A stretch of DNA of 64,000 nucleotides, taken from a virus. Location of the stretch: the IMG/VR virus record IMGVR_UViG_3300040786_000062. One strand, 5' to 3'. Made by a program: the position numbers and the translations under genes. The stretch's first letter is position 1; each line of letters begins with the position of its first letter. The notes under the pieces were generated by a model. It saw only the letters and a list, made by a program, of their open reading frames with translations, had not been told where the DNA came from and ran no database searches. Shown here piece after piece: positions 21,190 through 40,091 of the stretch.

Positions 21190-22117
21190 CGACTTTTAAT
21201 TTTTCTCCTGTCTCTGGTTATAATTCATTATAAGTAATTCCACACCTTTTCAGAGTAACACCTTCAACCTTTTTACAGCAGCGGATGGTCTATGAAACTC
21301 TTTTGAGGTCCAGAAATACTCATCTTTAGGTAAAATTTCTTCTAATAACGGAAAGTAATAATAAGAAAGTGACCATCTACTCTTTGTAGTCTTCAATAGT
21401 TCTAGTAACCTTCTATGCGAGGACACACCAAAAGTCTCTTCTGTGTCACATCCATACCAAAACAATCGTCTACCATCATCATCGTTTTTTATCTCGTTAA
21501 AACGAGCGTATGGTGGATCAAGGTAGATATAAGTATCTTCTGCGTCATGTCTTTTTATAACTCCTTCAAAATCCTCACTGTTAAACTCGGATATATTCTG
21601 TAACCTTTCTGTATACTTGTTTTTCTCTAATTTATTAATCAAAACCATTAGTTTTAATTTATCGGTTTTCTTTACAAAGCCAGTAAAACCACCTCCACGA
21701 GGATATACACTTGAAAATGATGATGTTATTAAGAATGCATATATTCCTGCCTTAGATAAGTCACCTATTTCGAAATTCATATCATCTAAAAGTCATTAGT
21801 TACATACTTTCGATATATTGCTTTATAGAAATCCCATTTCTTATCTAACTCTGTCTCTGTTGTGTATAACAAACCACCAACCGACATTAGTTTTTTTAGT
21901 TCTACTAAAACTCTTCTGGTCTTGAACAACACTGAATAAGATTTGCTTGGTGTTTATTTCTGTCATTAAATATGACATTTTCGAATTCTAAGTTAGAATC
22001 TAAATAAATAGCAAATGAGCCAGAAAAGGCTCGACATATGTTTTACAGTCTCTTGGTATTTTAGGTTATGAAAGATTGAAAATTGGCCTTTCCACCAAAG
22101 TAGGCTATGATACTCAT
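21190..22117 (-). CDS. Dam-like D12 class N6-adenine DNA methyltransferase
   Basis: MSIIAYFGGK...YVEPFSGS (motifs X and I), IFND, EDF, YIYLDPPY (motif IV), C-terminal ELLIMNY. Confidence 0.92.
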
Positions 22118-22164
22118 ATTTTATAGTTTTATTAATTATATAAAGTATAAAGTAAAAGTTTAGT

Positions 22165-22698
22165 GTGCATAGTTAACGACACCATATTTTATATAAGGAA
22201 TTTCTAAATAAACTCCAATATATGCACCCATTATTTCTTAAATAAAATATTTTCTAATCCGTCTCCTTTTAACTCTTTTCTAACTTCCATCAGAATTTTC
22301 CTAAGTGGTTTTCCTTTACCATCACAGATACCCCAAAAAAAATCTTCCAAAAATTCCTTCTATAAGTTCTTCTTCCAGTTTCTAATAGTTGTTTTTAAGT
22401 AACTCATTTTAAACTTTCTCTAATAGCAAAGTTCATAAATTCAAGTTTCTTAACATCCCAGTCTTTCTTAACTTTATCTTACTACCCAATCTCTTTACTT
22501 TTCCTGCACTTTCAATAGTAGCAATAAACTCTCTAAAATCACCAGTTGTGTAATACTTACCATCTATCAATTGTTCATCATTAGACTTCATCGCAACATA
22601 AAATGCTCAACACTTGGATATTTTATACCTTGATGTTCTATACTACAAGTATAGAAGTTTGACAGAAAACTATATCTACCTTCAAATTTATCAATCAT
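22165..22698 (-). CDS. NADAR (YbiA/DUF1768) family protein
   Basis: FLSNFY...YPSVEHFYVAMK...KRLG...LRKDWD...M...KF...LL.TG...LIEG...FWG...G.N.LGKILMEVR. Confidence 0.88.
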
Positions 22699-24255: not shown

Positions 24256-24284
24256 AAAAAACCATCAATTGATGGATTTTTTTT
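24255..24284. terminator. Bidirectional terminator between the endonuclease gene and the tmRNA
   Basis: A-run-ccatc-aatt-gatgg-T-run. Confidence 0.7.
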
Positions 24285-24285
24285 C

Positions 24286-24646
24286 TGAGATGACGTTGTA
24301 CTGCCCAACGTCTCTTCCTAGTTAAAAATAACTACTCATTTACAGGTTTAGTAAATTTTTCTAATTTACAAAATAACTAGTTTTTTGAATCTCATCTAAC
24401 TAATAAAAAAGTTTCACTTTTTAACTGATGACGCAGCTTGTAGAATTTTTAGAGTCTTATTACTAAGCTACTAGATCCGCTACTTGGATCATGTTGTTTT
24501 TAAGGGTCGCTACTAAGTCTTCACGAGTTCCTACTTCATTTACGTTTCCGTTTAAAATTTATCAACTAATTTATTAATCGGTTACTGTAGACCACCTGAT
24601 ACCTGCATAATTATCATAATCCAAAAAATCGATGCTAATACACCCC
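24286..24646 (-). ncRNA. ssrA: tmRNA (one-piece, about 361 nt) with a 28-aa tag
   Basis: 5' end GGGGTGTATTAGCATCGA and 3' end GAC-GTTG-GGCAGTA-CAAC-GTCATCTCA. Helix-2 strands pair: TTTTTTGG/CTAGGAAG, GATAATTAT/GTAGTTATT, GCAGG/CCTGT. Resume context is TAAAC|GGA. Tag GNVNEVGTREDLVATLKNNMIQVADLVA (24466-24549) is followed by TAG TAA TAA. It has its own promoter and terminator. Confidence 0.85.
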
Positions 24647-24688
24647 TTGTTATGATTTATATATATTATAATCTAAATATGTAAAAGT

Positions 24689-25045
24689 TTAATTTATTAT
24701 TACATTTTTATATCTAAATGCTTTTAGTGATATTTTTATATTTATCAATAACACCATTGAAGAATTTAGTTTATTACTTGTCATCTCACCATGCCAATAT
24801 TCGTCTGGTATTCTAGGTACATCCTTTCCTCTTGCACTTACCTCAACACCATTTATCTTACCATTCATAAAACCAACAGACCATGTGGTCTTCGTCAACT
24901 TCTCTATATAACCATTTGCGAATATTATCCCCCCATCCTGTTGATCCATCAACATATATATTTACCAATATTAGAATCTTTACTAAGAAGATCACTTCTA
25001 AATGGTAAATCGTTATTATTTCGTTAAAATTTTTAAATGTTTCAT
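24689..25045 (-). CDS. Hypothetical protein with capsid-targeting-like N-terminus (MKHLKxFNEN)
   Basis: ATG at 25045 joins ORF 24689..24955 after one indel. Confidence 0.55.
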
Positions 25046-25089
25046 GTTCTTATTTTTTAATTTTTCGATTAAAACAATCATATTAATAT

Positions 25090-25442
25090 TATATAAAGAG
25101 TCACTATTTATATAATCGTTTAATGAGTATAATTGTCCTACTTTTGCTATTATCACTAGGTAATTTTACTTTATAATATATTCTTTTACTTTAAAGTATA
25201 CTTTGAAGTATTCTACTAATGTCATCAGATATTCATCAACATCAGTTAATTTAAATGCTTCTTCTCGTTTAACGTGTGTTGTTACTATTTTATATTTTAA
25301 ATAGAAATATCCCAATACCCATCATTATATACTATATCAAATTCAAATCCCTTGTCTTTTAATTCGATAAGAATACCCTCGATATCCTCTTTATATTTAT
25401 CTATGTTTACACTTTCGTTAAACTTTTTTTTAAATGTTTCAT
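25090..25442 (-). CDS. Hypothetical protein with capsid-targeting-like N-terminus (MKHLKKFNES)
   Basis: Manual translation MKHLKKFNESVNIDKYKEDIEGILIELKDKGFEF. Confidence 0.55.
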
Positions 25443-25599
25443 GATCTTATTAATTTTAATTTTAACCACCATGTCAATATATAAAGATTCGAATGTTTTA
25501 TATTACTCTTTGACATTATCGTTAAACCATTTTATTACCAACTCTTTTGGAAATATATATTTACCTTCTTTATATTGTATACCACCTTTCTGAATAACA

Positions 25600-26759
25600 T
25601 ATGACGTATCATCTGAATTTATTTTATCAAAATGTTTTATATATTCATCAACATCATTAAATTCTTGTCTAATATACTTATTGCACCATCTTCATATGCT
25701 AACATATCATATTCATTAGGATCAATGTCAATGCCGAAAATATTACCAAAGTAAATATTTAGTTTACCTAAGTCCTTAAATCGTATATCATCATATCCTT
25801 CTATTTGAACTAAAATATCATCTAATATAGTTATTCTAATGTTTAGTTCATCGAACCAAGTATTAAATACTAATGTATCGCTATTATACGTATCAAATTC
25901 TAATTTATTGGTATGCATTAAATCATATCTATTTAATATGCTCTTAACGCCATTTATTGTAGATTTATTGACAAATCTATGTCTTGGTTCAAGTCTATAC
26001 TTAGGAGTATAATTAAATACAGGTCTGTCTGTTGGTAGACTCTCCCAATTCAACTTACAAGCGGCTTCAAGAACTCTTTTAGTATATCCTAGGTCAACCC
26101 ATTCAGAAGTATAATGCTCATCCCATCCACCTGCGCTAATATTAGTGCATTCTGGGATAACATCTAAGAATGTTGCTGTATCAGTATAATATGCTTGTGG
26201 ATCTGGCTTAGAATCGACTCCTAAATCACTTAGTTCAGAACTAAGTGCTTCTGAAAATTTAACAGAACAGCAAACTCTTGCTTTTGTCTTGTCACGACAG
26301 AACCCATTTGTTTTCTATCGAAGGCAACCGCTCTTTAAATTTTTTGAAAAATCAGGGTCAGCCATTAAAGCATTCTGAGAACCCATAAACCACCACTTAA
26401 AATTGGTTCTTCCCAAGAAAGAAGTAGTATGTTCCTGGTATGTTTTATCATAAATAACATTATGGTCATACCAAGTTTGTTATCACCTCTAATATTGTTT
26501 CACCGTCAGTCTTTATAATATCACCTTCTATTATATGCTTTACCTTTCATACTTTTCAGAATAGGTATCAAGGTGTGTGGTGAATAAAGTTTCAGACTTA
26601 CCCACTTCTATATAATAATTACCAATAGAATCTTTTTATATCCTGTTGGTAAGTATTTTTCTAATTTACTCTCATGTTTAAATGGAATAGTATATTCAGT
26701 TAATTTCAAAATGTATCTTTAAAATCATCTTGTGACACAGGTAACTTATTTCTTTTCAT
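25600..26759 (-). CDS. M28/M20-like zinc peptidase, paralog A
   Basis: LFTTHLDT...ILGGDNKLG...YYFFLGEE...AFDRK...CCS...YTDTATF...PECTNISAG...EH; TATATTTG lies 4 nt upstream of the ATG. Confidence 0.85.
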
Positions 26760-26781
26760 ATTACAAATATAATAATTATTT

Positions 26782-27299
26782 TTACAAAAACGGTTTATTA
26801 AAGTGTATATTTTCCTTTGCAAAGTCTTCATAGTCTTCTTCGGAAATATAAAATAAAAACTCTAATATAGTCTCACCTCTCATATTTTCATACATATCAA
26901 AATCCGATAAATATTCTGAGAATATATCAATTTGTATTGATTGTATAGACTGAAATATGGTAACCACATCAACCAATCTTTCTTTAGGGGTTAGTTTAGA
27001 TGTAATGGTAACATCATACCCTCTATTACTTACGGTGAAGTCTCTAACCCTTTTTCTTTAAGTTTACCTCTCAATACATACAAAGGTGCTCCATCTCCTC
27101 ATCTACGGCTAGTTCATCATCGCTTTTATCTCGATTATACTTATAGTCGTCTTCATTATATTCAGGAGTATCAAAATCATCATCCTCATAGGAGTTATCA
27201 TATTTACTATCATCATCTTTATCCCAAGATGAATTCCATACCATTCCTTGACCTGATTGGTCTACCGCCTCTAAAAAAATTTTTATATTTTTTTATCAT
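26782..27299 (-). CDS. Acidic hypothetical protein with capsid-targeting-like N-terminus (MIKNIKIFLE)
   Basis: D/E/Y-rich N-terminal half joins ORF 26782..26976. Confidence 0.5.
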
Positions 27300-27304
27300 C
27301 TTAT

Positions 27305-28632
27305 CTTAGTTCTATTTTAATATATGTTTCATCAAAATCACCGCAGGATAAATTTTATTTTTATTTAAAATCATTTGAACCTGTGTCAATGTTTCTGCGA
27401 TTGTACCTATTTCCGCATTATCTAAATCCAATCTAATATATATCCTATCGTCAGTACCAACCATCTTTTACTTCAAGTTCATATACGACCTTCTTTATTT
27501 CATCTATAACTACTTTATACTTTTTTTATCAACTCACTGCTCATACCTATCTTTCTTGCAGTAGGCAATGAACTCCAATCAACATTAACTGATGCCTTTG
27601 CTAATCTATCTAAATAAGTAATGTTTTGAGTTTCTTTTGCGGTGTGTTCGAAATTATACCCAACTGATATATTTGTACACTCTGGTATATCATCTATAAA
27701 TGATGCTGATCAGTATATATACCACCTGCATCCGGTGATAAATCTAATCCACTTTTGTTATATTCATCACATAAAGCATTCGCAAATTCATCAGAACAAC
27801 ATTGTCTTCCTACTTGTCTAGTTATAACTGATACCGTCTTTCTTCTATCAAAGAAACGCACCTTTAATATTTTCTAAGTAACTAGTTTTGCTATAATCAC
27901 CTGATAATAAGTTAGAACCAATACCACCCACTTCTTCGCCAAGAAAGAAATAATATAATCCAGGTACTTTGTTATGCATCATGTATAACATAACTGCTAC
28001 TCCTGCCTTGTCATCAGCACCTAATATTGAATTACCATCAGTTAGAATATGCTCATCCCCATCCGAATCAACAGTTGATACTAAATTAGTAACAAGTTGC
28101 TTTCTATCTGCGGTGTCTAAGTGTGATGTAAACATCGTTGTATCATCACCCGGTATTATCTTATAATAATTACCAAAACGATCTTTGTCTAACTTTGGTA
28201 GAAATTGTAATAATTCTTTCTCGTGTCCATGTGGATATGTCTTGGTGACTAATGATAGAAATGTTGATCTTACATTTGTAGGGTCATATTTAAATGGCTC
28301 CACGGGAATAGGAGTTGTTTTATCTTAGCAACACCACCATACTTTTTCTCATTAAACTTTCTAACAAAAGCATTAACCTCTTGTGCAGGAATATCCCAGG
28401 AAAGTACTCATTTATGAAATCATGTATCTTTATCGAGTTCCTTTTGCCACCTATAATAACATCAAATTTATATAATCTTTCGATACACTCATATATGTTA
28501 TATCGAGTATGTTTTCTAACTCAGATGAGTCGTGTAACCAACCTAGTTCGTATGCCACATAATCACCATCATCTTCTAATTCCTCAAATATTCTTCGAAG
28601 TTCTATTGAGAACTTCATTTTAATTCAGCCAT
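27305..28632 (-). CDS. M28/M20-like zinc peptidase, paralog B, with N-terminal extension
   Basis: MFTSHLDT...ILGADDKAG...YYFFLGEEVGGIGS...SFDRR...CCSDEF...YTDSASF...PECTNISVGY..EH. Confidence 0.88.
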
Positions 28633-28649
28633 TAATATCTTATATTTTT

Positions 28650-29036
28650 TTAAATTATAACTTCATTTGTATTTTTATAATCTACACTTACCTGACCATC
28701 ATTATGATCCTTTTGTTTTTACAAACTTTCTCTTGCAATAAATAACAGTTATGTTATTTAATGACTTTGCCTTACTATTCTTTTAGTGAGCTCGGCAACT
28801 TTTCTTATTATTTCTGGTGTTGGTAAATTATCTCTAACCACTATAACAGAGTGAGATCCAGGAAATCCCTTCACATGCATCCAAATATCATCACTATCAG
28901 CAATGTTAAATGTTAAATGGTCGTTTGATTTGGCATCTCTACCTATATAAACTATAAATCCATCTATATCTAATGTTCTAATATCAGGAAATTTATCTTT
29001 ACCTTCATTAAATGATTTAAAATTCTTTACTTTCAT
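28650..29036 (-). CDS. Stand-alone NFACT-R (DUF814) RNA-binding domain protein
   Basis: IYIGRDAKSNDHLT...DDIWMHVKGFPGSHSVI...A.L...SK...V.Y...V.K...G.V; N-terminus MKVKNFKSFNE. Confidence 0.85.
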
Positions 29037-29076
29037 ATTCTATATATAAAATTAAAATAGCGTAAATATATACATA

Positions 29077-29104
29077 AAAAAGACTCTAATTTCTTAGAGT
29101 CTTT
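29077..29104 (-). terminator. Terminator after the major capsid gene
   Basis: aaaagactctaa-ttc-ttagagtctttt. Confidence 0.8.
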
Positions 29105-29123
29105 TAGATTAACTAATTAATGA

Positions 29124-30773
29124 TTAGTTTAAGTATTGATCATCAGTTACTTGATAGTCATAAATTGTTTTGTGGAAACCATCCCACTTCAGCAACAGCA
29201 TATCTTGATCTAAGTAACATTCTTGGTGCAAAAGTTGCTTCAGAAATAATACTGATAGATTGTGCCATCAAGTAAGGTACGAAGATGATACCTGGTTGGT
29301 CTGGATTATTCTTTCTACCCAAAACAACTCTGTTATCATTATACTTCATGTAAGGATCGATATAGATTGAAATATCTCCAATTGAACCTACTGGGTATAA
29401 TTGTCCTTGTCCATTCATTTTAGATCTTAGCGGGTTAATTGTGTAACCAGCGATATCTTGAAGTGCAGCACCAAGACCACCGTTTGTAATTAAATACTGT
29501 GCTGGTCCAACACGTCCTTCTGTTGCGATATAGTTAGATGCGTGAGCAATCTTAGTTATCAATTTACGTTGAACAGCGTGAGTTGTTTCTCCACCTAATG
29601 TTCCATTTGCATATGATGTATCTAAATCGAAGATAGTTTGAAGAGTCAAACCTGATCCAGATCTAACTGGTGCTCCTGTTGTTCTGTTCAATTCACCCAT
29701 TTCGAAGATTTTAGCAACGATTTGCTTAGAAATTGTTTGAGACAATTCGTTAACAAGGATTGATTCCATCTTTTGAACGATATCCATACCTGTGTTTGCT
29801 TTTAATGTCTTCAATTTCAGTTCTTCTTAGAGCTGAAGATACTTCAATAGTACCAACTGCAATAGTCTTAGTTGAGATTTTCGGTCCGATAACACCAGAA
29901 TAAGTTTTATCATCTTGTTCTCTACTCATTGGATAATCACCTGAACTTAAGTTAGATGTCCAGTTTGCTGAGAAACCTGGCAATTGTCTTCTAATGCTGA
30001 AATCAATTCAATTGTTGAATCTGATGCACCAACTGTTCCGATCCAAAGAATTTGAAGAACCATTGAATTCGTAGCAGCAAATGTGTTTTTAGTAACATCA
30101 AAAGAAACTGATATTGACCAGCAGTGTTTGCTTGTCTGTATGTTCTGAACATTGGTAAACCATCTACTCTTGAGAATCCTAAAATTCAAGAACTCCTTCT
30201 TTACTAACTGGTTCAGCATTCAATAACAATGAAGCTGATGCTCGATGCTTTTAACGAATATTCTACCACCTTGTAAACCACCTTGTGTTTGTGATACCTG
30301 ATGTAGCTGCAAAATGCAGTTAATGATGCATTGATAGCAGCACCTTTTGTTGCGTTGTTCAATTTGAAAACTTGTGGTCTTGCATCTTCAGTGTCAAGGT
30401 CATCATATTGAAAATCAATATAAAGTAAATCTACTTTTGGACCTGGTGTTGGCTTAACAGCAACTAAATCCAAACCAATTGTTTGAGCAGCAATTTTCAT
30501 AGCTACTGGTAAAGGTTTTGTCCGATATCACCTGAACCAACTCCGTTTGCATAGTTACCTAAAGTTTGTCCTGCTAATCCTGAAGGTTGTGCAGCAACAA
30601 CTGCTCCCATACCTGCAACGTTACTTGCGTTAACATATGCGTTCTCATTAATTGAGTGAAATTCTGCATACTCTGACATCCAAGTAAGTTTGTCTTCTCC
30701 TACAACTCCCATGTTTTCCAAAACAGGAGACCATTTTTCATGGCTTTTGATTATCTATTCTAATCTGTGACAT
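29124..30773 (-). CDS. Major capsid protein (T4 gp23-like), frameshifted
   Basis: KKWSPVLE N-terminus; AAQTIGLDLVAVKPTPGP; IEDIKANTGMD...ILVNELSQTISKQI; GRVGPAQYLITNG; GSIGDISIYIDPY; YLMAQ...FAPRMLLRSRYA. Confidence 0.92.
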
Positions 30774-30852
30774 AATTTTTTTTTTTTTTTTTTTTTTAAT
30801 TCTATATGTATATATATCCTTTATTTTGTCATTTTTTGACAGTGTGGATTTT

Positions 30853-32899
30853 TTATAGATTAAATGTTTTAAATCTCTCCATAATAGCAGTCATATCGCC
30901 ATCTGATAACTTATCTTCTTGTATCAAACTTTGAGAAACTAATTTTCTAGATGTAGATTCAGTTTTAATGTTTCTAGTAGACCAAAATGATCAACTTGAT
31001 TTTCAGTTACTAATACTTCTTCTGGATATAATCTAGCTTGAGATAAGATAGATTTTTTAGAAGACTCATTTAACTGACCCCAGATTGGCTTCATGTTTTC
31101 AGGCATCAATCTGATTACTCTCTCTTCAAGAGTTTCATTCTTAGTAGAAAGTGATTCTGCTATCAAAGTTAGAACGTCTTTTGCTGTAAAATAACTACTT
31201 TCGCTTATGTGTAGTTTGACATCATCTTGTTCTTCTCCTGATAGAGAGTAATAACTATCTACTTGTGATTTATTTAAGAATTTCAAGAAATTCAAATCAC
31301 TGCTTTCAGAAACTTTACGTTTTTAGCTTCTGCTATTAATTTATTTATAGAATCTGAAAGTTGTGAATCACTTTCTCCATAATATTCTTCTTCACCTTCT
31401 TCATTTTCAGGTAAGTATTCTTTTGCTCATCTTCATCTTCTTCTGTTGAACAGTCAGCACCTACATAACCTGGCTGCATTTTATAATCTTCTTTGTTTTC
31501 AGGAATTTCATTCTCTTCATCTTGTTCAAATCCTGCGTCCATTAATGATGGAAATCTTTCTTCTTCACCAAATCCTTCATTTAATTTGTTTCCGTTTAAT
31601 CTTTCAACTATCATTCCTTGGTAGTTAATAGATTTATCAAGGCTTTCTGCTAAATATTCAGAATATCCGATGTTATCATCTAAATGTTCTGCGATATATT
31701 CAGAGTATGCAATATTACCTTCAACGCTTTCTGCTAAATACTCAGAATAAGCAATTGAGTTATCGACATTTTCTGCTAAGTATTCAGAGTATGAAATGTT
31801 TTATCAAGACTTTCTGCGATATACTCAGAATATTCAATGTTTTATCAAGGCTTTCTGCGATATACTCAGTATAAGAAATGTGTTTATCAACACTTTCAGC
31901 CAAATACTCAGAATATTCGATATTCTTATCAACATTCTCAGCTAAGTACTCAGAGTATCCGATGTTTTATCAAGACTTTCTGCTAAGTACTCAGAGTAGT
32001 TAATTGCCTTTCTAAATTTTCCGCTAAATAGTCATTATGCTTTGCTAATTTGCCTGTTGTTTCTTTTAAAGATTTGTTTTCAGTTACAATTATTTGAATT
32101 TTTCTGCTAAATAATCTAAATACTTACCAACTTGAGTGTTGCTGCTATTTAATTCTTCGTAGTATGCTAATAATTCGTCTAATTTCTTGGACTCATATCT
32201 CCTTTAGAGATTGCTTTTAACTTCTTTTGAGTTGTTGCAATTTCGTTTACCAAATAATGTGAGTAATCACTTAATTGTTTTTTGTTACAAATTCATTTTT
32301 GTTCATGTTGAATAGTTCGTTAATTTTGACTCATCGGACATTTCATAAATCCTAAAGTTGTTTTGTTCTATCTTACCGTCTTCACAATAACCCAAAGACT
32401 CATTTAAAACTTTTATGCTCATTTTGCAGATGCAAACCCAGGATCAGCAACAATATCATATGTGAATAATTTCTTTAATGATACTGAACCATCAGATTCT
32501 GTAATACCTGCTGCTCTTGATGATACGAAAATAGGACAACCATCATCGATAAGTGCCTTAGATTCTTTACCCCAATAGGTACTTAGTAATTTTATCTCTC
32601 CTGCAACTAGGTTCTTTTCAGAAACAAATTCTGCTTTTGTGATAATGTGAGATGCACGTGATAACGAAGTATCAAATACATCCGGGTGATCAAACTCACC
32701 ATAAACAGCACCTAGGCTGGTCATTCTTTCATTTAATTCTTCTAAGGCCGGTAAGAATTTGGTGCATTATAAATTCGCTCATTACGATTTTAACACCAAA
32801 CTCTGTAAACGTACCATTAAGAATATAATCTTTGCTGTTACCAACAGATTCTCTTATAAGAGAATCTGTTGAATTTTCTACGATTAAAACTGGTTTCAT
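30853..32899 (-). CDS. Prohead protease (gp21-like) fused or translationally coupled to a scaffold/core protein (gp22-like)
   Basis: GTFTEFGVKNRNERIY...VYGEFDHP...SHII...GCPIFVSSRAAG...TYDIVADPGF, followed by a coiled-coil, a repeat region and an acidic segment; lies directly upstream of the capsid gene. Confidence 0.88.
31630..32045 (-). repeat. Ten tandem 42-nt units encoding Y(S/T)EY(L/I)AE(S/N)(L/V)DKNI-type 14-aa repeats
   Basis: On the + strand, ta(c/t)tcag(a/t)(a/g)ta recurs every 41-42 nt from about 31655 to 31990, with one degenerate unit (HNDYLAEN). Confidence 0.92.
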
Positions 32900-33044
32900 T
32901 TATATAATTATTTTTGTAGTTCTGTGGTATATATAACATGTTCGTTATAACAAAAAAATAAAGGTGGATTTTTTATAGAACAAATAACTTTTCGGAATAT
33001 AATAGGAAGTAATAACTTTATTATATAGATAAAAAAAATAGTAT

Positions 33045-33430
33045 ATGATCCTTTCAAGAGAGATAGAAATAAAAATAACAGAAGCAAATTATTATTACTA
33101 CGAATTCTTAGGATATGAGTTGTATATTGGAGAATCTATATTAATACCAGTAGAGTTACTACCGAAGGGTTCACATTATAAGATACTATGTAAATGTGAT
33201 GGTATTGATTGTGTAGTCGAAAAGAAGTGATATATAAAAATTATTTAAAGTATGATAATAAATGGGAGAATATTACTGTAGAAAATGTTCCGAAAAGAAG
33301 AAAAAGAAACCTGAGAAGGAACTTTGGAGTTGATTATCCAATACAGAATAAAAAAAGTACACCAACGAAAAAATACTTTAGTAGAAAAGTATGGGGTTGA
33401 TAATATCTCAAAAAAAAAAAAAATAAAAAT
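33045..33430 (+). CDS. Zinc-finger plus KYGV-repeat module resembling the N-terminus of phage homing endonucleases; no nuclease domain
   Basis: KGSHYKILCKCD..C...K...Y...YYCRKC...KETL..NFGVDYPIQN...TL.EKYGVDN. Confidence 0.6.
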
Positions 33431-35272
33431 GATTAAATTAAAGAAGATAGTATACATGATGGTACTATCGAATTCACAAGTAGTGAAAATGCGTTCATAA
33501 AAATAGATGATAGTCGTGTATTCATATTTAAAAGAAACACACTAAATGCACTTAACCAAGATAAAGTTAAAGTTAAGATTATTATAAAAAATAATAAAGT
33601 TGAAGCAGAAGTAATTGAAGTTACTGAGAGATATAGAACTCAGTTTGTAGGTAAGGTACATATAAATAAGAAATTAACCTTTGTTATACTAGATAGTCAA
33701 AAGATACCAGTAGACTTTTATATAAAAGGAGACCACGATGCGCTAGATGGTCAAAAGTTCTAGTTGAACTTATAAGTTGGGAACCAGGAACCAAATCACC
33801 CAAAGGTAATATTGTAGAAGTAATTGGAAATCCTGGTGAGAATAACACTGAGATGAATTCATTATGTATGAATATGGATTACCAAATAGTTTTCCACTAA
33901 TGGTAGAAGCAGATGCTTCTTAATAAGCAGTGTAATAACTGATGAAGAAATTAGTAAAGGAGAGACTTTAGGAACATATCTACTTTTACAATTGATCCAA
34001 AAGATGCAAAAGACTTTGATGATGCGTTATCAGTAAGTATACTTGGAGACAATATTGAAGTAGGTATACATATTGCTGATGTGCATTATATAAAAGAAGG
34101 AACTGATCTAGAAGAAGAGGCTGCTAAAAGAGCAACATCAGTTTATTTAGTTGATAGATGTGTGCCTATGTTACCGGAGATACTAAGTAATGGAGTTTGT
34201 TCATTAAAACCAAATGAAGATAAACTTTGTTTTCTGTTGTTGTTACTTTAAACAAAGAAGGTGATATTTTATCTAAATGGTTTGGTAAGACCATTATACA
34301 TTCTGATAGAAGATTTTCTTATGAAGAAGCACAAGATATAATCGAAGGTAATTCCGGTGATTATGAAGCAGAAATTCTAATACTAGACACAACTGCTAAG
34401 AAAATGAGAAGTAAGAGAATTAAAGAAGGTTCTATTGAAATGGGTGGTATTGAAGTTAAATTTCAATTAGATCCTATTACAAAGAAACCAACTGGTGTTT
34501 ATTTCAAAGAACAAAAGATGCGAATAAGTTAATCGAAGAATATATGTTGCTTGCTAATAGGCTAGTCGCAAAACTATCAGAAGCAAAGTATCATAATATT
34601 TATAGAGTACATAATTCTCCTAACATTGATAAACTAACTGCATTATCTTTGATATGTAAGAACTTTGAATATAGCCTAGATGTAGAAGATACTAATAACC
34701 TTAAAGATTCTATAAATAAACTGGTTAGTGATATAAAGGGTAAACCAGAAGAAAATATGATAGAGACTCTTATAACTAGATGTATGTCAAAAGCAACTTA
34801 TACGATAAAAATGGGACATTATGGATTAGGATTCACACACTATTCTCACTTCACAAGTCCTATTAGGAGATATCCTGACTTAATAGTACATAGAATTCTA
34901 TTAGATTATTTAAATAAGAAACCTAACGGAAATCCAAAAAAGATAGAAGACTCTGCAAAATGGTGTTCTGAAAGAGAAGTACTGCAAGGGCAGAGCGTGA
35001 TTCTATTAAATTTAAACAGATAGAGTATTTAGAAGATAAACTTGGACAAGTATTTGACGGAATGGTATCTGGTGTTACTGATTGGGGTATGTATGTTGAA
35101 CTAATTGAAAGTAAATGTGAGGGTTAGATATGATAAACTATATAAAGTAGATACTGAAAATTATATTGTATATACTAAAACAGGGAATCAATAAGATTGG
35201 GTGATAATGTAAAAGTTCTTGTTAAGTCTGTTGATTTAGAACGAAGACAAATAGACTTTGAAATATTCTAAT
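33429..35272 (+). CDS. rnr: Ribonuclease R (RNB family), frameshifted
   Basis: Cold-shock/OB domains, [86 protein letters not shown]-terminal S1 domain. Confidence 0.95.
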
Positions 35273-36482: not shown

Positions 36483-38235
36483 TTAAAATTCAAACTCTCC
36501 ACCACCTTCTTGTGCTGCTGGTGGCTCAGGAGTCTCCGTGCTTGTGCACCTCCTTGTGCTTGTGCTCCTGCTTGTGCTCCTCAAGTTCAGGAGATTCTCC
36601 TGGCTCACCACCGAAGTCACCTCCACCTCCTCCGAAGTCATCACCGCCTCCACCACCGAATCCGCCGCCTCCACCGCCAGCACCTTCACCTGCCTCACCA
36701 CTAGCATCCTCAGCAGCAGAATTGGTATCCTTCAACCAATATCTTTCATTTTCTGCTTTTTCTTCTGGAATAATTTAAATACATTATCCATAATCCATTC
36801 AATATGAAAATAAGGCTTCTCACCATTCATAACTCCTAATAAAGTACCAACTATTGAAGACTTTTTTCTAAATTATTTATTTTCTTCCACTCTTCAAATA
36901 CTTGATTAGAAAGAAGGTAATATCGACCCCATTTATAAAACTCATCATCTTTTAATTCAGAATTCAATTAACATTTGTAATTTAATAGGCTTAACAATTA
37001 ACTCTTTAAAATTTGCTCTTAGTCTACTGATGAAGTTGTGAAACTTTATCTCATCTCTTGTCATTCTGCCGCATCAGTAACTAAGTTACCTCCACCGTTT
37101 TCTCCTTCAAATCTACTTATAGGAATTTTAGATGCTCTTTTAATGCTTTTATAAAACCAATCTAACATTGAGTCATCATTTAAGTTATGACCCTGTGGTG
37201 ACATAAGTTCCATATTAGGCGTACCACCGTCTCCCTAGGAAACCATATTTGTTTATTATATGCTAAGTGCTTAGTTCCATTTATAGACAATGTTCTAATG
37301 AATCATCCCATTCAACTTCTTCGGAATAATCATGAATCAATTGACCTATCTGTTCTTCGGCTCTTTGTCTAGACATACCCTTAATTGGTATGGTAAACTT
37401 TTGATATACCGTAGCATTGATAATATTAAACATTATTCTTGTTTGTTGAAGAATTTTTAATTGATTATATGGTTTTATCAATCCTTCAACATAAGATGTT
37501 TCTGAATATTCATTCTGAGTAGAATATGATACATAAACTATTTGTGAATCTAGAAATATTCTACGAAGCATTGGATCTTCAGGAATTGTATCCATAAATG
37601 TCCAATATTTTGCTCATATGCAGGAACTAATGTCTCAGGTCGTAATCTATTGAAACCTATAATATTTTTCTTCTTATCATCATATATAATCTCGTTTGCT
37701 ACATAACCATCAACTAGAAAGTCTTTCATCATGTTCCAAGTGGTTATACTGTCAGAAAATCCATACTTATTATATACTTTTCGAAATACTCTTGAAATTT
37801 ATCATGTACTTCTTGTATTTATTAGGCAATGCTTTTGGTGTACAAAAATCACTATCATCATTATAAACAATACACTCATCTGCAATAGTTGATACGAAAT
37901 CTCTTATCTCATCTTTAATAGAGTATTCTCTTAATATTCTACGTTTGTCACCATATGCTTTATCCAAATATGGAATAGATTTTCTGTTTAAAATCGATGC
38001 AACAGCGCGCTGCGAAAGAAGTCGTACATCGAATTACCCTTAGCAGCATAGGGATCCTCGTTTATACCAATACCCACTTGATTTCTAACTATCATATCAT
38101 CATAATTCATACCATATGATGATAAACTCTTAATATTCTACTGAATAATCCTTTATTCTCTACTGCCGAATTTGTATAAGAGAAATTTGAACTATTTTCG
38201 CTATTCTCAGAGTTATAATTATTATATGATGCCAT
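36483..38235 (-). CDS. Portal protein (T4 gp20-like) with Gly/Glu-rich C-terminal tail
   Basis: DEIRDFVSTIADECIVY, FLVDGYVANEII, SYVEGLIKPYNQLKIL...RIMFNI, QIGQLIHDY, WFP...GGTPNME, LKRASKIP.SRF, RDEIKF..FISRLRANFK; located in the head module. Confidence 0.92.
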
Positions 38236-39571: not shown

Positions 39572-40091
39572 ATGTTAAATTCTAAACCAAATAATAAAAA
39601 ATATCACCAAGGAAATTATATACCTAATAATAAAGATAAAGTGTTAAAATTAAACTCAGAAGGTGGTGTTTTATAGAAGTAGTTGAGATATAAGATAATG
39701 GTATGGATGGATAGTAAGGATGAGGTTGTTCTATGGGGTGCAGAATGTCTTGAGATACCATATCAATTAACTCACTTTGAAAATGGTGATATTAGAGTAA
39801 AATCACATAGATATTATCCAGATTTCTTCTATAGAATGAGAATGTCAGATGGTTCATTAAAAGATGTTGTTATGGAAGTTAAACCACAAAAGAATATGAA
39901 ATGGTTCTGAAACTAAATGAGGGTAGAATGGAAGTTCCCGCAAATGGTCTAAAGAAATTGAGAGGATTTGAGTATGATTTAAAGATGGCACATAAAACTC
40001 TCAAAAGTGGCAAACTATGATAGAATGGTGTAATAAAAGGATATGAATTTATAATTGTGACTGAGTTAAGTCTTAAAAAATTCAGTGTTTA
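39572..40091 (+). CDS. Head completion nuclease (T4 gp4 / TnsA-N-like)
   Basis: YHQGNYIPNNKDK...YRSSLE.KIM.W.D....V..WGAE...IPY...HRYYPDFF...MEVKP...KW......C...G.EF...TE. Confidence 0.88.

Follow-up and report, generated by a model that had tools for sequence, protein, structure and literature searches.

A stretch of viral DNA of 64,000 nucleotides (IMG/VR virus record IMGVR_UViG_3300040786_000062; hereafter, the window) includes an 11-kb portion, positions 24,286 to 35,272, in which a transfer-messenger RNA (tmRNA), a protein consisting of an NFACT-R domain, and an RNase R-family exoribonuclease are encoded close together. The original prediction, made from the letters alone, was that these three genes may form a ribosome-rescue toolkit of a phage. 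All three genes are real. The window has a G+C content of 29%, and its open reading frames (ORFs) under translation table 11 are unusually short. The closest public records are LR756502.1 (642 kb) and LR745206.1 (635 kb), which are uncultured huge phages with 70-79% nucleotide identity to the window and synteny across its positions ~21-41 kb. Al-Shayeb et al. (2020; PMC7162821) describe these as Mahaphage genomes, with Bacteroidetes as the predicted hosts. An uncultivated Mahaphage-type huge phage is the best explanation for the source of the window. The sequencing run that best matches the window is labelled as an ice metagenome, and lesser matches are labelled as seawater, ice or sediment; runs with only 0.06-0.13 of words in common were used for these labels, not to name a habitat.

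The tmRNA gene is located on the minus strand at 24286..24646, within conserved noncoding DNA, and the start proposed in the original prediction, 24286, is exactly the discriminator A. A search of IMG/VR with the capsid protein yielded 80 related loci, and nhmmer found the RNA in 63 of them (59 copies are full length, and 46 are unique). The gene is usually situated 2.4-6 kb downstream of the capsid gene and is present wherever the flanking sequence extends far enough. Judged by its anatomy and by covariation, the RNA is a genuine one-piece tmRNA of a derived form. When the structure was evaluated with RNAalifold and local counts, 97% of cells were paired, versus 36-47% when the partners were slid, and double (compensatory) changes occurred in 30 of 51 pairs, versus 10-15 in the slid controls.

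The 3' half of the tRNA-like domain (24286..24311, minus strand) includes the T-arm, the 3' strand of the acceptor stem and the discriminator A, which follows the acceptor stem in all relatives. The acceptor stem comprises 7 bp, GGGGAUG/CAUCUCC, with compensatory changes at positions 5 and 6 (GGGGAAG/CUUCUCC, GGGGCUG/CAGCUCC and GGGGGUG/CACCUCC). A G3:U70 pair, which completes the identity set for alanyl-tRNA synthetase (AlaRS), is found in 43 of 45 aligned rows, and the remaining two reflect alignment misregister. The terminal CCA is not encoded in the gene. The window copy has the 5' end GGGG(G)UG and the 3' end ...CAUCUC(C)A; this copy likely has single-base assembly deletions at both ends, and the corrected ends are expected to be GGGGGUG...CAUCUCCA.

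The most unusual part of the RNA is its elbow. The T-arm (24293-24311, minus strand) is stacked directly on the acceptor stem, and it departs from the canonical arrangement of a 5-bp stem and a 7-nt UUCRANY loop. Instead, it has a stem of 6 bp, of which five covary (3-30 double changes each), and the loop GGCAGUA. The form GGCAGUR is present in 30 of 45 rows, and loop positions 3 and 4 still carry C and a purine, respectively. No GG dinucleotide is present in the D-loop analogue. The tRNA-like domain is joined to the body of the RNA by a long helix 2 of 22 pairs, which is 96% paired and shows double changes in 12 pairs.

A hairpin at 24577..24600 (minus strand) corresponds to pseudoknot 1 (PK1), in which the loop pairs with a downstream NRAC element. 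The two sides covary as GUCA:UGAC, GUUA:UAAC, GUAA:UUAC and GUCG:CGAU, and as GUUGUCU:AGGCAAC versus GUUAUCU:AGGUAAC. PK1 was resolved sequence by sequence, and a column-wise covariation scan was limited by poor alignment of the variable body. In the window, an A at 24597 breaks the PK1 stem, and this position reads G (C on the plus strand) in all four of four public runs. A second pseudoknot-like element is formed by UCAC pairing with GUGA.

All 45 aligned sequences keep the tag frame open: a near-invariant GAAGAYNUAGUA is followed by 14-16 open codons. This short frame ends in Val or Ala in 44 of the 45, the other two frames are erratic, and all indels in the tag region are multiples of three nucleotides. 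The in-phase frame upstream of the short tag is also open, and it encodes the conserved peptide NG(N/K)(V/T)NEV(G/A)(T/S)(R/K)EDLV. Both candidate resume points have the context U-A-R-N-N followed by G. In the long reading, 28 codons follow UAAAC, with GGA as the resume codon (24466..24549, minus strand); in the short reading, 15 codons follow UAGUA, with GCG as the resume codon (24466-24510). Both end at the stops TAG TAA TAA (24457-24465). The frame is internal and lacks a start codon, its C-terminus is nonpolar, and its stop codon is found in a hairpin. The canonical distance between PK1 and the resume codon is 11 nt in E. coli. Because the distance from the end of PK1 to the upstream GGN codon, 8-13 nt, is canonical, a long tag of 27-30 residues is somewhat favored over the short one. 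In the window, the long tag would have 28 residues, with LVA at its end.

An intrinsic terminator hairpin (24262..24275, minus strand) directly follows the 3' end of the tmRNA; a terminator scan found three such elements where 0.0 were expected, and a hairpin with a T-run is found at the same site in relatives. Of the 46 copies, 28 have a TAnnTTTG box, the -7 promoter consensus of Bacteroidota, 19-37 nt upstream of the RNA; the background frequency of this box is 0.65 per kb. A scan for sigma-70 promoters found no excess over chance in the AT-rich DNA of the window. One metatranscriptome contig spans 24334-24637 and is compatible with expression of the tmRNA.

Standard tools do not report this RNA. 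ARAGORN found no tmRNA in the window and none in the 46 unique copies from relatives at default settings; with relaxed settings, tried on three copies, it reported nothing down to 80%, and at 60% gave only inconsistent "permuted" calls. The Rfam model RF00023, which has a gathering score of 47, produced no match to the window copy at that score or at E<=10, a threshold at which Rfam gave only noise-level matches. Its sole match to this RNA is one of 8.6 bits at the 3' end of the copy in LR756502.1. The copy in a related locus, L002, scores 10.5 bits with alpha_tmRNA and 10.6 bits with tmRNA_permuted, so that tmRNAs of this lineage do not exceed 11 bits on Rfam models. Both methods miss the RNA because its elbow is remodelled, with a GGCAGUR T-loop, an extra covarying G-C pair and a D-loop that lacks GG.

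Related Mahaphages have tmRNAs that Rfam can detect and whose T-arms are increasingly canonical. In Lak-A1 and Lak-B5, the T-arm is canonical and the D-loop contains GG, and the tmRNAs score 54 and 48 bits, respectively. In a 636-kb genome, the loop of the tmRNA is aberrant and the score is 65 bits, and a tmRNA-like RNA in a 735-kb genome scores only 21 bits; ARAGORN misses every one of these. ARAGORN reported no tmRNA in LR756504.1, Lak-A1 or Lak-B5 (loci L093, L094 and L095), despite RF00023 scores of 48-65 bits, which are above the gathering score. Counts of tmRNAs in huge phages that are based on ARAGORN are therefore too low.

The protein partner of tmRNA, SmpB, is encoded elsewhere in these genomes. 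A search of the window agreed with the original prediction that no smpB gene is present there. However, LR756502.1 and LR745206.1 each have one full-length copy, which scores 167-177 bits. The protein also passes the equivalog threshold of NCBIfam, and its alignment with solved SmpB structures includes their C-terminal tail. The Lak phages all have SmpB as well, as do the 636-kb and 735-kb genomes, so that it is present in all six complete Mahaphage genomes. A protein with the RF-1/GGQ domain is likewise present in all six, as a full-length protein in the Lak phages and as a short frame in the other four. In LR745206.1, it is a release-factor-like ORF of 138 aa with the GGQ motif; LR756502.1 has a homologous open frame, for which no ORF from a common start codon is listed. 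The genes for SmpB and for the GGQ protein are both at a distance of more than 100 kb from the tmRNA region.

Other partners were not found in the two closest genomes. No additional tmRNA was detected in LR756502.1 or LR745206.1, where the best RF00023 matches are tRNAs. Neither genome yielded EF-Tu domain 3 or a complete AlaRS, which is absent or fragmentary: a 292-aa open frame in LR745206.1 (368019-368711) matches the catalytic core of AlaRS only in part (PF01411 positions 25-140 and 282-342), and LR756502.1 has none. Because these functions are missing from the two genomes, we infer that charging and delivery of the tmRNA must rely on host factors.

The NFACT-R protein, of ~129 aa, is encoded directly downstream of the capsid gene (28650..29036, minus strand). 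The truncated ORF in the window scores 30.5 bits on PF05670 (cut-off 29.8), and the intact L002 orthologue scores 61.3 bits; assembly errors disrupt the C-terminal part of the window copy. The protein corresponds to only the C-terminal region of the longer rescue factors, namely positions 453-521 of RqcH_arch and 448-546 of EfbA, and no NFACT-N, HhH or coiled-coil part accompanies it, as would be expected of RqcH or NEMF. From its domain, the protein may act on ribosomes or tRNA, and an RqcH-like function cannot be assumed. Its N-terminus is conserved, with MxKKYxxFxE followed by (S/G)KKDKFP. The common leader M-x-K-K-Y-x-x-F-x-E is found both in NFACT-R (window 28650-29036; L002:7281-7670) and in the neighboring protein p169 (26839-27033; L002:5375-5884), which begins MKINKYKKFLE. 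This leader presumably resembles the capsid-targeting sequence of phage T4, which is cleaved after Glu by the prohead protease. The likeness suggests that NFACT-R and p169 might be head-packaged proteins that the prohead protease trims.

The third gene encodes an RNase R-family 3'-5' exoribonuclease with OB/CSD1, CSD2, RNB and S1 domains (~33410..35271, plus strand), as identified with tblastn, Pfam and TIGR02063. In the window it is found as three pieces in three frames, which cover positions 1-325 of the 326 of RNB, as well as OB_RNB and CSD2. The window copy has approximately ten single-base deletions, and the frame passes through 2>1>3>2>1>3>2>1>3>2>1, and short-read contigs restore an A or T at 33752, 33955 and 34229. 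On TIGR02063 (RNase_R; cut-off 597.85), the intact L002 orthologue reaches 655.6 bits. Against the E. coli-type model PRK11642, the phage protein aligns to positions 93-723 of 813, with 362 bits versus a cut-off of 982, and lacks both the N-terminal helix-turn-helix-like region and the K-rich basic tail at the C-terminus. In E. coli, this basic tail is reportedly needed for decay of non-stop mRNAs linked to tmRNA. The phage enzyme probably would act in bulk decay of RNA or in decay of structured RNA.

The stretch that holds these genes is part of a head-morphogenesis module. The gene order is portal, DUF7487, RNase R, protease-scaffold, capsid, NFACT-R, two M28/PepT-like proteins and tmRNA, followed by NADAR and Dam. 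The major capsid protein is of the T4 gp23 type (29120..30780, minus strand; tblastn over three window frames, with the L002 orthologue scoring 93.9 bits on PF07068). Upstream of it, a prohead protease fused to a repeat-rich scaffold (30865..32899, minus strand) was found by tblastn and placed mainly by synteny, with a weak S77 match at E=0.005. Its segment 31630-32040 has tandem YSEYLAE(S/N)(L/V)D(K/N) repeats, which occur in all three frames only through assembly deletions. A portal protein of the T4 gp20 type is encoded just beyond the 11-kb stretch (36780..38175, minus strand; tblastn, with the L002 orthologue scoring 194.9 bits on PF07230).

Two M28/PepT-like paralogues, at 26018-26671 and 27315-28309, flank the p169 homologue at 26839-27033, and all three were located on the minus strand by tblastn with L002 proteins. 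The first paralogue is divergent (29% identity) and is situated between the p169 homologue and the tmRNA, an interval in which L002 has one copy. The original prediction mentioned multiple peptidases nearby. The prohead protease-scaffold accounts for one of these, whereas the other two are far below family cut-offs (Pfam M28, E=0.0099; NCBIfam PepT-like, 34.5 bits versus a cut-off of 274). These proteins are head-maturation or unassigned proteins and not proteases directed at the tag.

Several other features were observed in this region and in relatives. A protein with a TnsA-like endonuclease N-terminal domain is encoded past the portal module (39572-40089, plus strand; orthologue L002:18207-18731, PF08722, 43 bits). 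A NADAR-domain protein is encoded directly upstream of a Dam-type adenine methyltransferase (21217-22698, minus strand), and this pair is kept in most relatives, downstream of the tmRNA. The tRNA arrays of relatives include tRNA-like genes to which ARAGORN assigns "anticodons" of 2 or 4 nt (gt, gtag or tcta; L086:1501-1588, L087:1996-2069 and L093:2039-2114). These may be frameshift-suppressor-type or otherwise odd tRNAs.

The broken frames seen in RNase R extend throughout the window. ORFs of at least 120 aa cover 28% of the window, compared with 81-82% of LR756502.1 and LR745206.1. Each break is a -1 shift at a run of A or T, and bases are missing from genes at a rate of ~1 per 200 nt. Relative to its relatives, the window is depleted of homopolymers of 5-6 bases and enriched in those of 4. 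In addition, tblastn with the proteins of relatives reveals that homology and amino acid conservation persist across every break. Contigs of four public runs have an extra A or T at the window junctions 30510, 33752, 33955, 34229 and others; three of these runs are from other studies, the contigs are from short reads, and 158 more indel rows exist beyond those listed. Because the breaks are all -1 shifts at A/T runs, homology is continuous, and public contigs hold the missing bases, the breaks are deletions of single bases in assembly, not biology. An alternative genetic code was considered for the short ORFs and rejected, as no stop-codon reassignment brings coding density back to normal, and the frames of the relatives are open when table 11 is used. 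Any reading of positions 1-64000 that is based on ORFs needs homology-guided correction of frames.

The distribution of the three genes among relatives bears directly on the proposed toolkit. The original prediction suggested co-occurrence as a check, with independent distribution counting against the idea, and independent distribution is largely what was observed. RNase R is missing from its portal/DUF7487 site in ~25 of the 80 loci, and NFACT-R is missing in ~20 of the 80; most of these loci have the tmRNA. Among the six complete Mahaphage genomes, a tmRNA-like RNA is present in all six (one is the weak 21-bit match), RNase R in three and NFACT-R in two. RNase R is absent from the Lak phages and the 735-kb genome, and in LR756502.1 it is ~155 kb from the capsid module. 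Across relatives, neither conserved linkage nor co-occurrence of the three genes was found. Therefore, the 11-kb neighborhood does not appear, on these sequence comparisons, to be a conserved functional unit. Judging from gene content, only tmRNA and SmpB behave as a conserved functional pair, and RNase R and NFACT-R appear to be accessory genes that were gained, moved or lost independently of the tmRNA.

The original interpretation is supported in part: what does stand is that the lineage has rescue genes, namely the tmRNA, SmpB at 167-177 bits and the GGQ protein. These constitute a dispersed set of ribosome-rescue genes, which was in outline already published (Al-Shayeb et al. 2020). Our preferred reading is that the Mahaphage head module includes a genuine tmRNA, which has a distant SmpB as its partner, along with separately inherited NFACT-R and RNase R genes. 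We assign this reading a probability of roughly three in four.

Under this reading, the tmRNA would be transcribed from its own promoter, trimmed at both ends and completed by addition of CCA. Host AlaRS would charge it through G3:U70. The phage SmpB, encoded more than 100 kb away, would bind the tmRNA, and host EF-Tu would deliver it to stalled ribosomes. Translation would then resume on the tag frame, so that the ribosome is released and the protein receives a phage-specific tag, probably of 27-30 residues, with a nonpolar Ala or Val at its end.

Several observations weigh against this reading. Aminoacylation, SmpB binding and tagging by the phage tmRNA are functions predicted from sequence. 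The resume codon is ambiguous, with two in-phase candidates. The ends of the window copy are imperfect, presumably because of assembly errors that remain uncorrected in the public-contig rows displayed. The contig from an RNA library is no proof of transcription, as carry-over of DNA is possible. Both ARAGORN and Rfam fail to recognize the gene, and a T-loop that lacks the canonical UUC, together with the extra pair in the T-arm, could impair recognition by EF-Tu or SmpB. Finally, tmRNA and NFACT-R are within ~2.5-6 kb of each other in most relatives, which implies some linkage.

This closeness also speaks for the view that tmRNA, NFACT-R, RNase R and the peptidases are a co-selected rescue cassette, for example one that acts against host RNase or tRNase defenses. 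The three genes are real and within 11 kb, the genome also has SmpB and the GGQ-domain protein, and bacterial RNase R is functionally tied to trans-translation. However, as the original prediction itself recognized, the genes are not one operon: the tmRNA and NFACT-R are on the minus strand and RNase R is on the plus strand, and capsid, protease and portal genes intervene. Moreover, RNase R is elsewhere in LR756502.1, is off its usual site in ~25 loci and is absent from three of the six complete genomes, and NFACT-R is absent from four of the six and from ~20 loci. SmpB and the GGQ protein are encoded far outside the stretch (more than 100 kb away), RNase R lacks the basic C-terminal tail, and the peptidases have head-maturation or unassigned roles. 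A cassette is thus improbable.

Alternately, the RNA might be derived from a tmRNA but no longer tag proteins, and might instead, as a decoy or inhibitor, sequester AlaRS, SmpB or EF-Tu of the host or block stalled ribosomes, as has been reported for the tag-less tmRNA of mycobacteriophage DS6A. The remodelled T-loop/D-loop elbow, the extra T-arm pair and the failure of standard models to find the RNA are consistent with this possibility. A precedent for an inhibitory tmRNA fragment from a phage is also cited in PMC11915505. However, the tag frame is open in 45 of 45 sequences, with only 3n indels and a conserved nonpolar end; G3:U70, PK1 and the motif preceding the tag are conserved; and the phage retains its own full-length SmpB. 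These features count against a decoy, because a decoy would need none of them, and we regard this role as quite unlikely. The idea that the window is a decaying, pseudogenised element with three nonfunctional genes, as ORF coverage of 28% versus 81% in relatives and the ~ten frame shifts in RNase R might suggest, is refuted in practice by the presence of the missing bases in contigs of four public runs; the restriction of the shifts to -1 changes at A/T runs, the altered homopolymer lengths and the conservation of amino acids across every shift also count against it.

A more elaborate form of the preferred reading, in which a genuine tmRNA acts with a distant SmpB, can also be imagined. Perhaps the remodelled elbow co-evolved with the phage SmpB to give a phage-private and partly host-orthogonal form of trans-translation, in which the long tag has another fate (a different protease or none), and NFACT-R, delivered with the capsid, acts on ribosomes or tRNA of the host already in the first minutes of infection. 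This proposal is doubtful.

The most valuable result is a by-product of the search for a toolkit: a derived tmRNA family that is unseen by standard tools and is paired with a phage SmpB. At least 59 contigs of one lineage of the largest known phages carry a tmRNA that would go unreported by ARAGORN, by Rfam models and by BLAST searches of existing tmRNA sets. Surveys of translation genes in phages therefore undercount this tmRNA, and calls of "SmpB without tmRNA" in these genomes are wrong. In the study of Al-Shayeb et al. (2020; PMC7162821), tmRNAs were called with ARAGORN; because ARAGORN finds none of these genes, the tmRNA of the window lineage was probably uncounted there. Phage tmRNA and SmpB were already published in that study, and what is new is the derived form of the tmRNA, its tag of probably 27-30 aa and the capsid-adjacent NFACT-R. 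The clade also offers a series from canonical to remodelled elbows (Lak phages, then the 636-kb genome, then the window lineage), each with its own SmpB, so that the elbow requirements of AlaRS, EF-Tu and SmpB can be put to a direct test. That RNase R and NFACT-R are distributed independently is a caution against inferring a functional link from proximity in a 640-kb genome.

In comparison with bacterial RNase R (TIGR02063; E. coli Rnr), the phage enzyme has the same CSD1-CSD2-RNB-S1 architecture and scores above the equivalog cut-off. In contrast to E. coli Rnr, it is 634 aa long and lacks the N-terminal ~64 model positions and the C-terminal basic region, which spans positions 724-813 in the E. 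coli-type model, and the position of its gene in the genome is variable.

The phage NFACT-R protein resembles the NFACT-R domain of RqcH/Rqc2/NEMF (PF05670) in its domain match of 61 bits and in the motifs GR(D/N)xxxND...DxWxH...PGSH. It differs in that it is stand-alone, without the NFACT-N, HhH and coiled-coil parts that bind tRNA-Ala and the 50S subunit, and in that its gene follows the capsid gene and encodes a leader like that of T4 capsid-targeted proteins.

The phage tmRNA has many features of the standard one-piece tmRNA (SsrA; RF00023, E. coli). These are the 7-bp acceptor stem with G3:U70 and discriminator A, the stacked T-arm, the lack of a D-stem, a long helix 2, PK1 ~10 nt before the resume codon, U-A-R-N-N preceding that codon, a nonpolar end of the tag, a stop codon placed in a hairpin, one or more additional pseudoknots, and a length of ~360-385 nt. 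In contrast to SsrA, the T-loop is GGCAGUR rather than UUCRANY, with an extra covarying G-C pair and 9 nt in place of the 7-nt loop; the D-loop analogue is without GG; CCA is not encoded; no Rfam model scores the RNA above 11 bits; and ARAGORN does not detect it. Tags of tmRNAs most commonly have 10 aa (PMC11915505), whereas the phage tag is probably 27-30 aa long.

Another closely related system is that of the Lak and other huge phages (Al-Shayeb et al. 2020, PMC7162821; Devoto et al. 2019). In the Lak phages, the T-arm of the tmRNA is canonical, and Rfam recognizes the gene at 48-54 bits; neither is true of the window lineage. Lak phages lack both RNase R and NFACT-R, whereas the window has both. 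Nonetheless, these phages and the window lineage belong to the same Mahaphage clade, and in both a phage tmRNA is paired with a phage SmpB.

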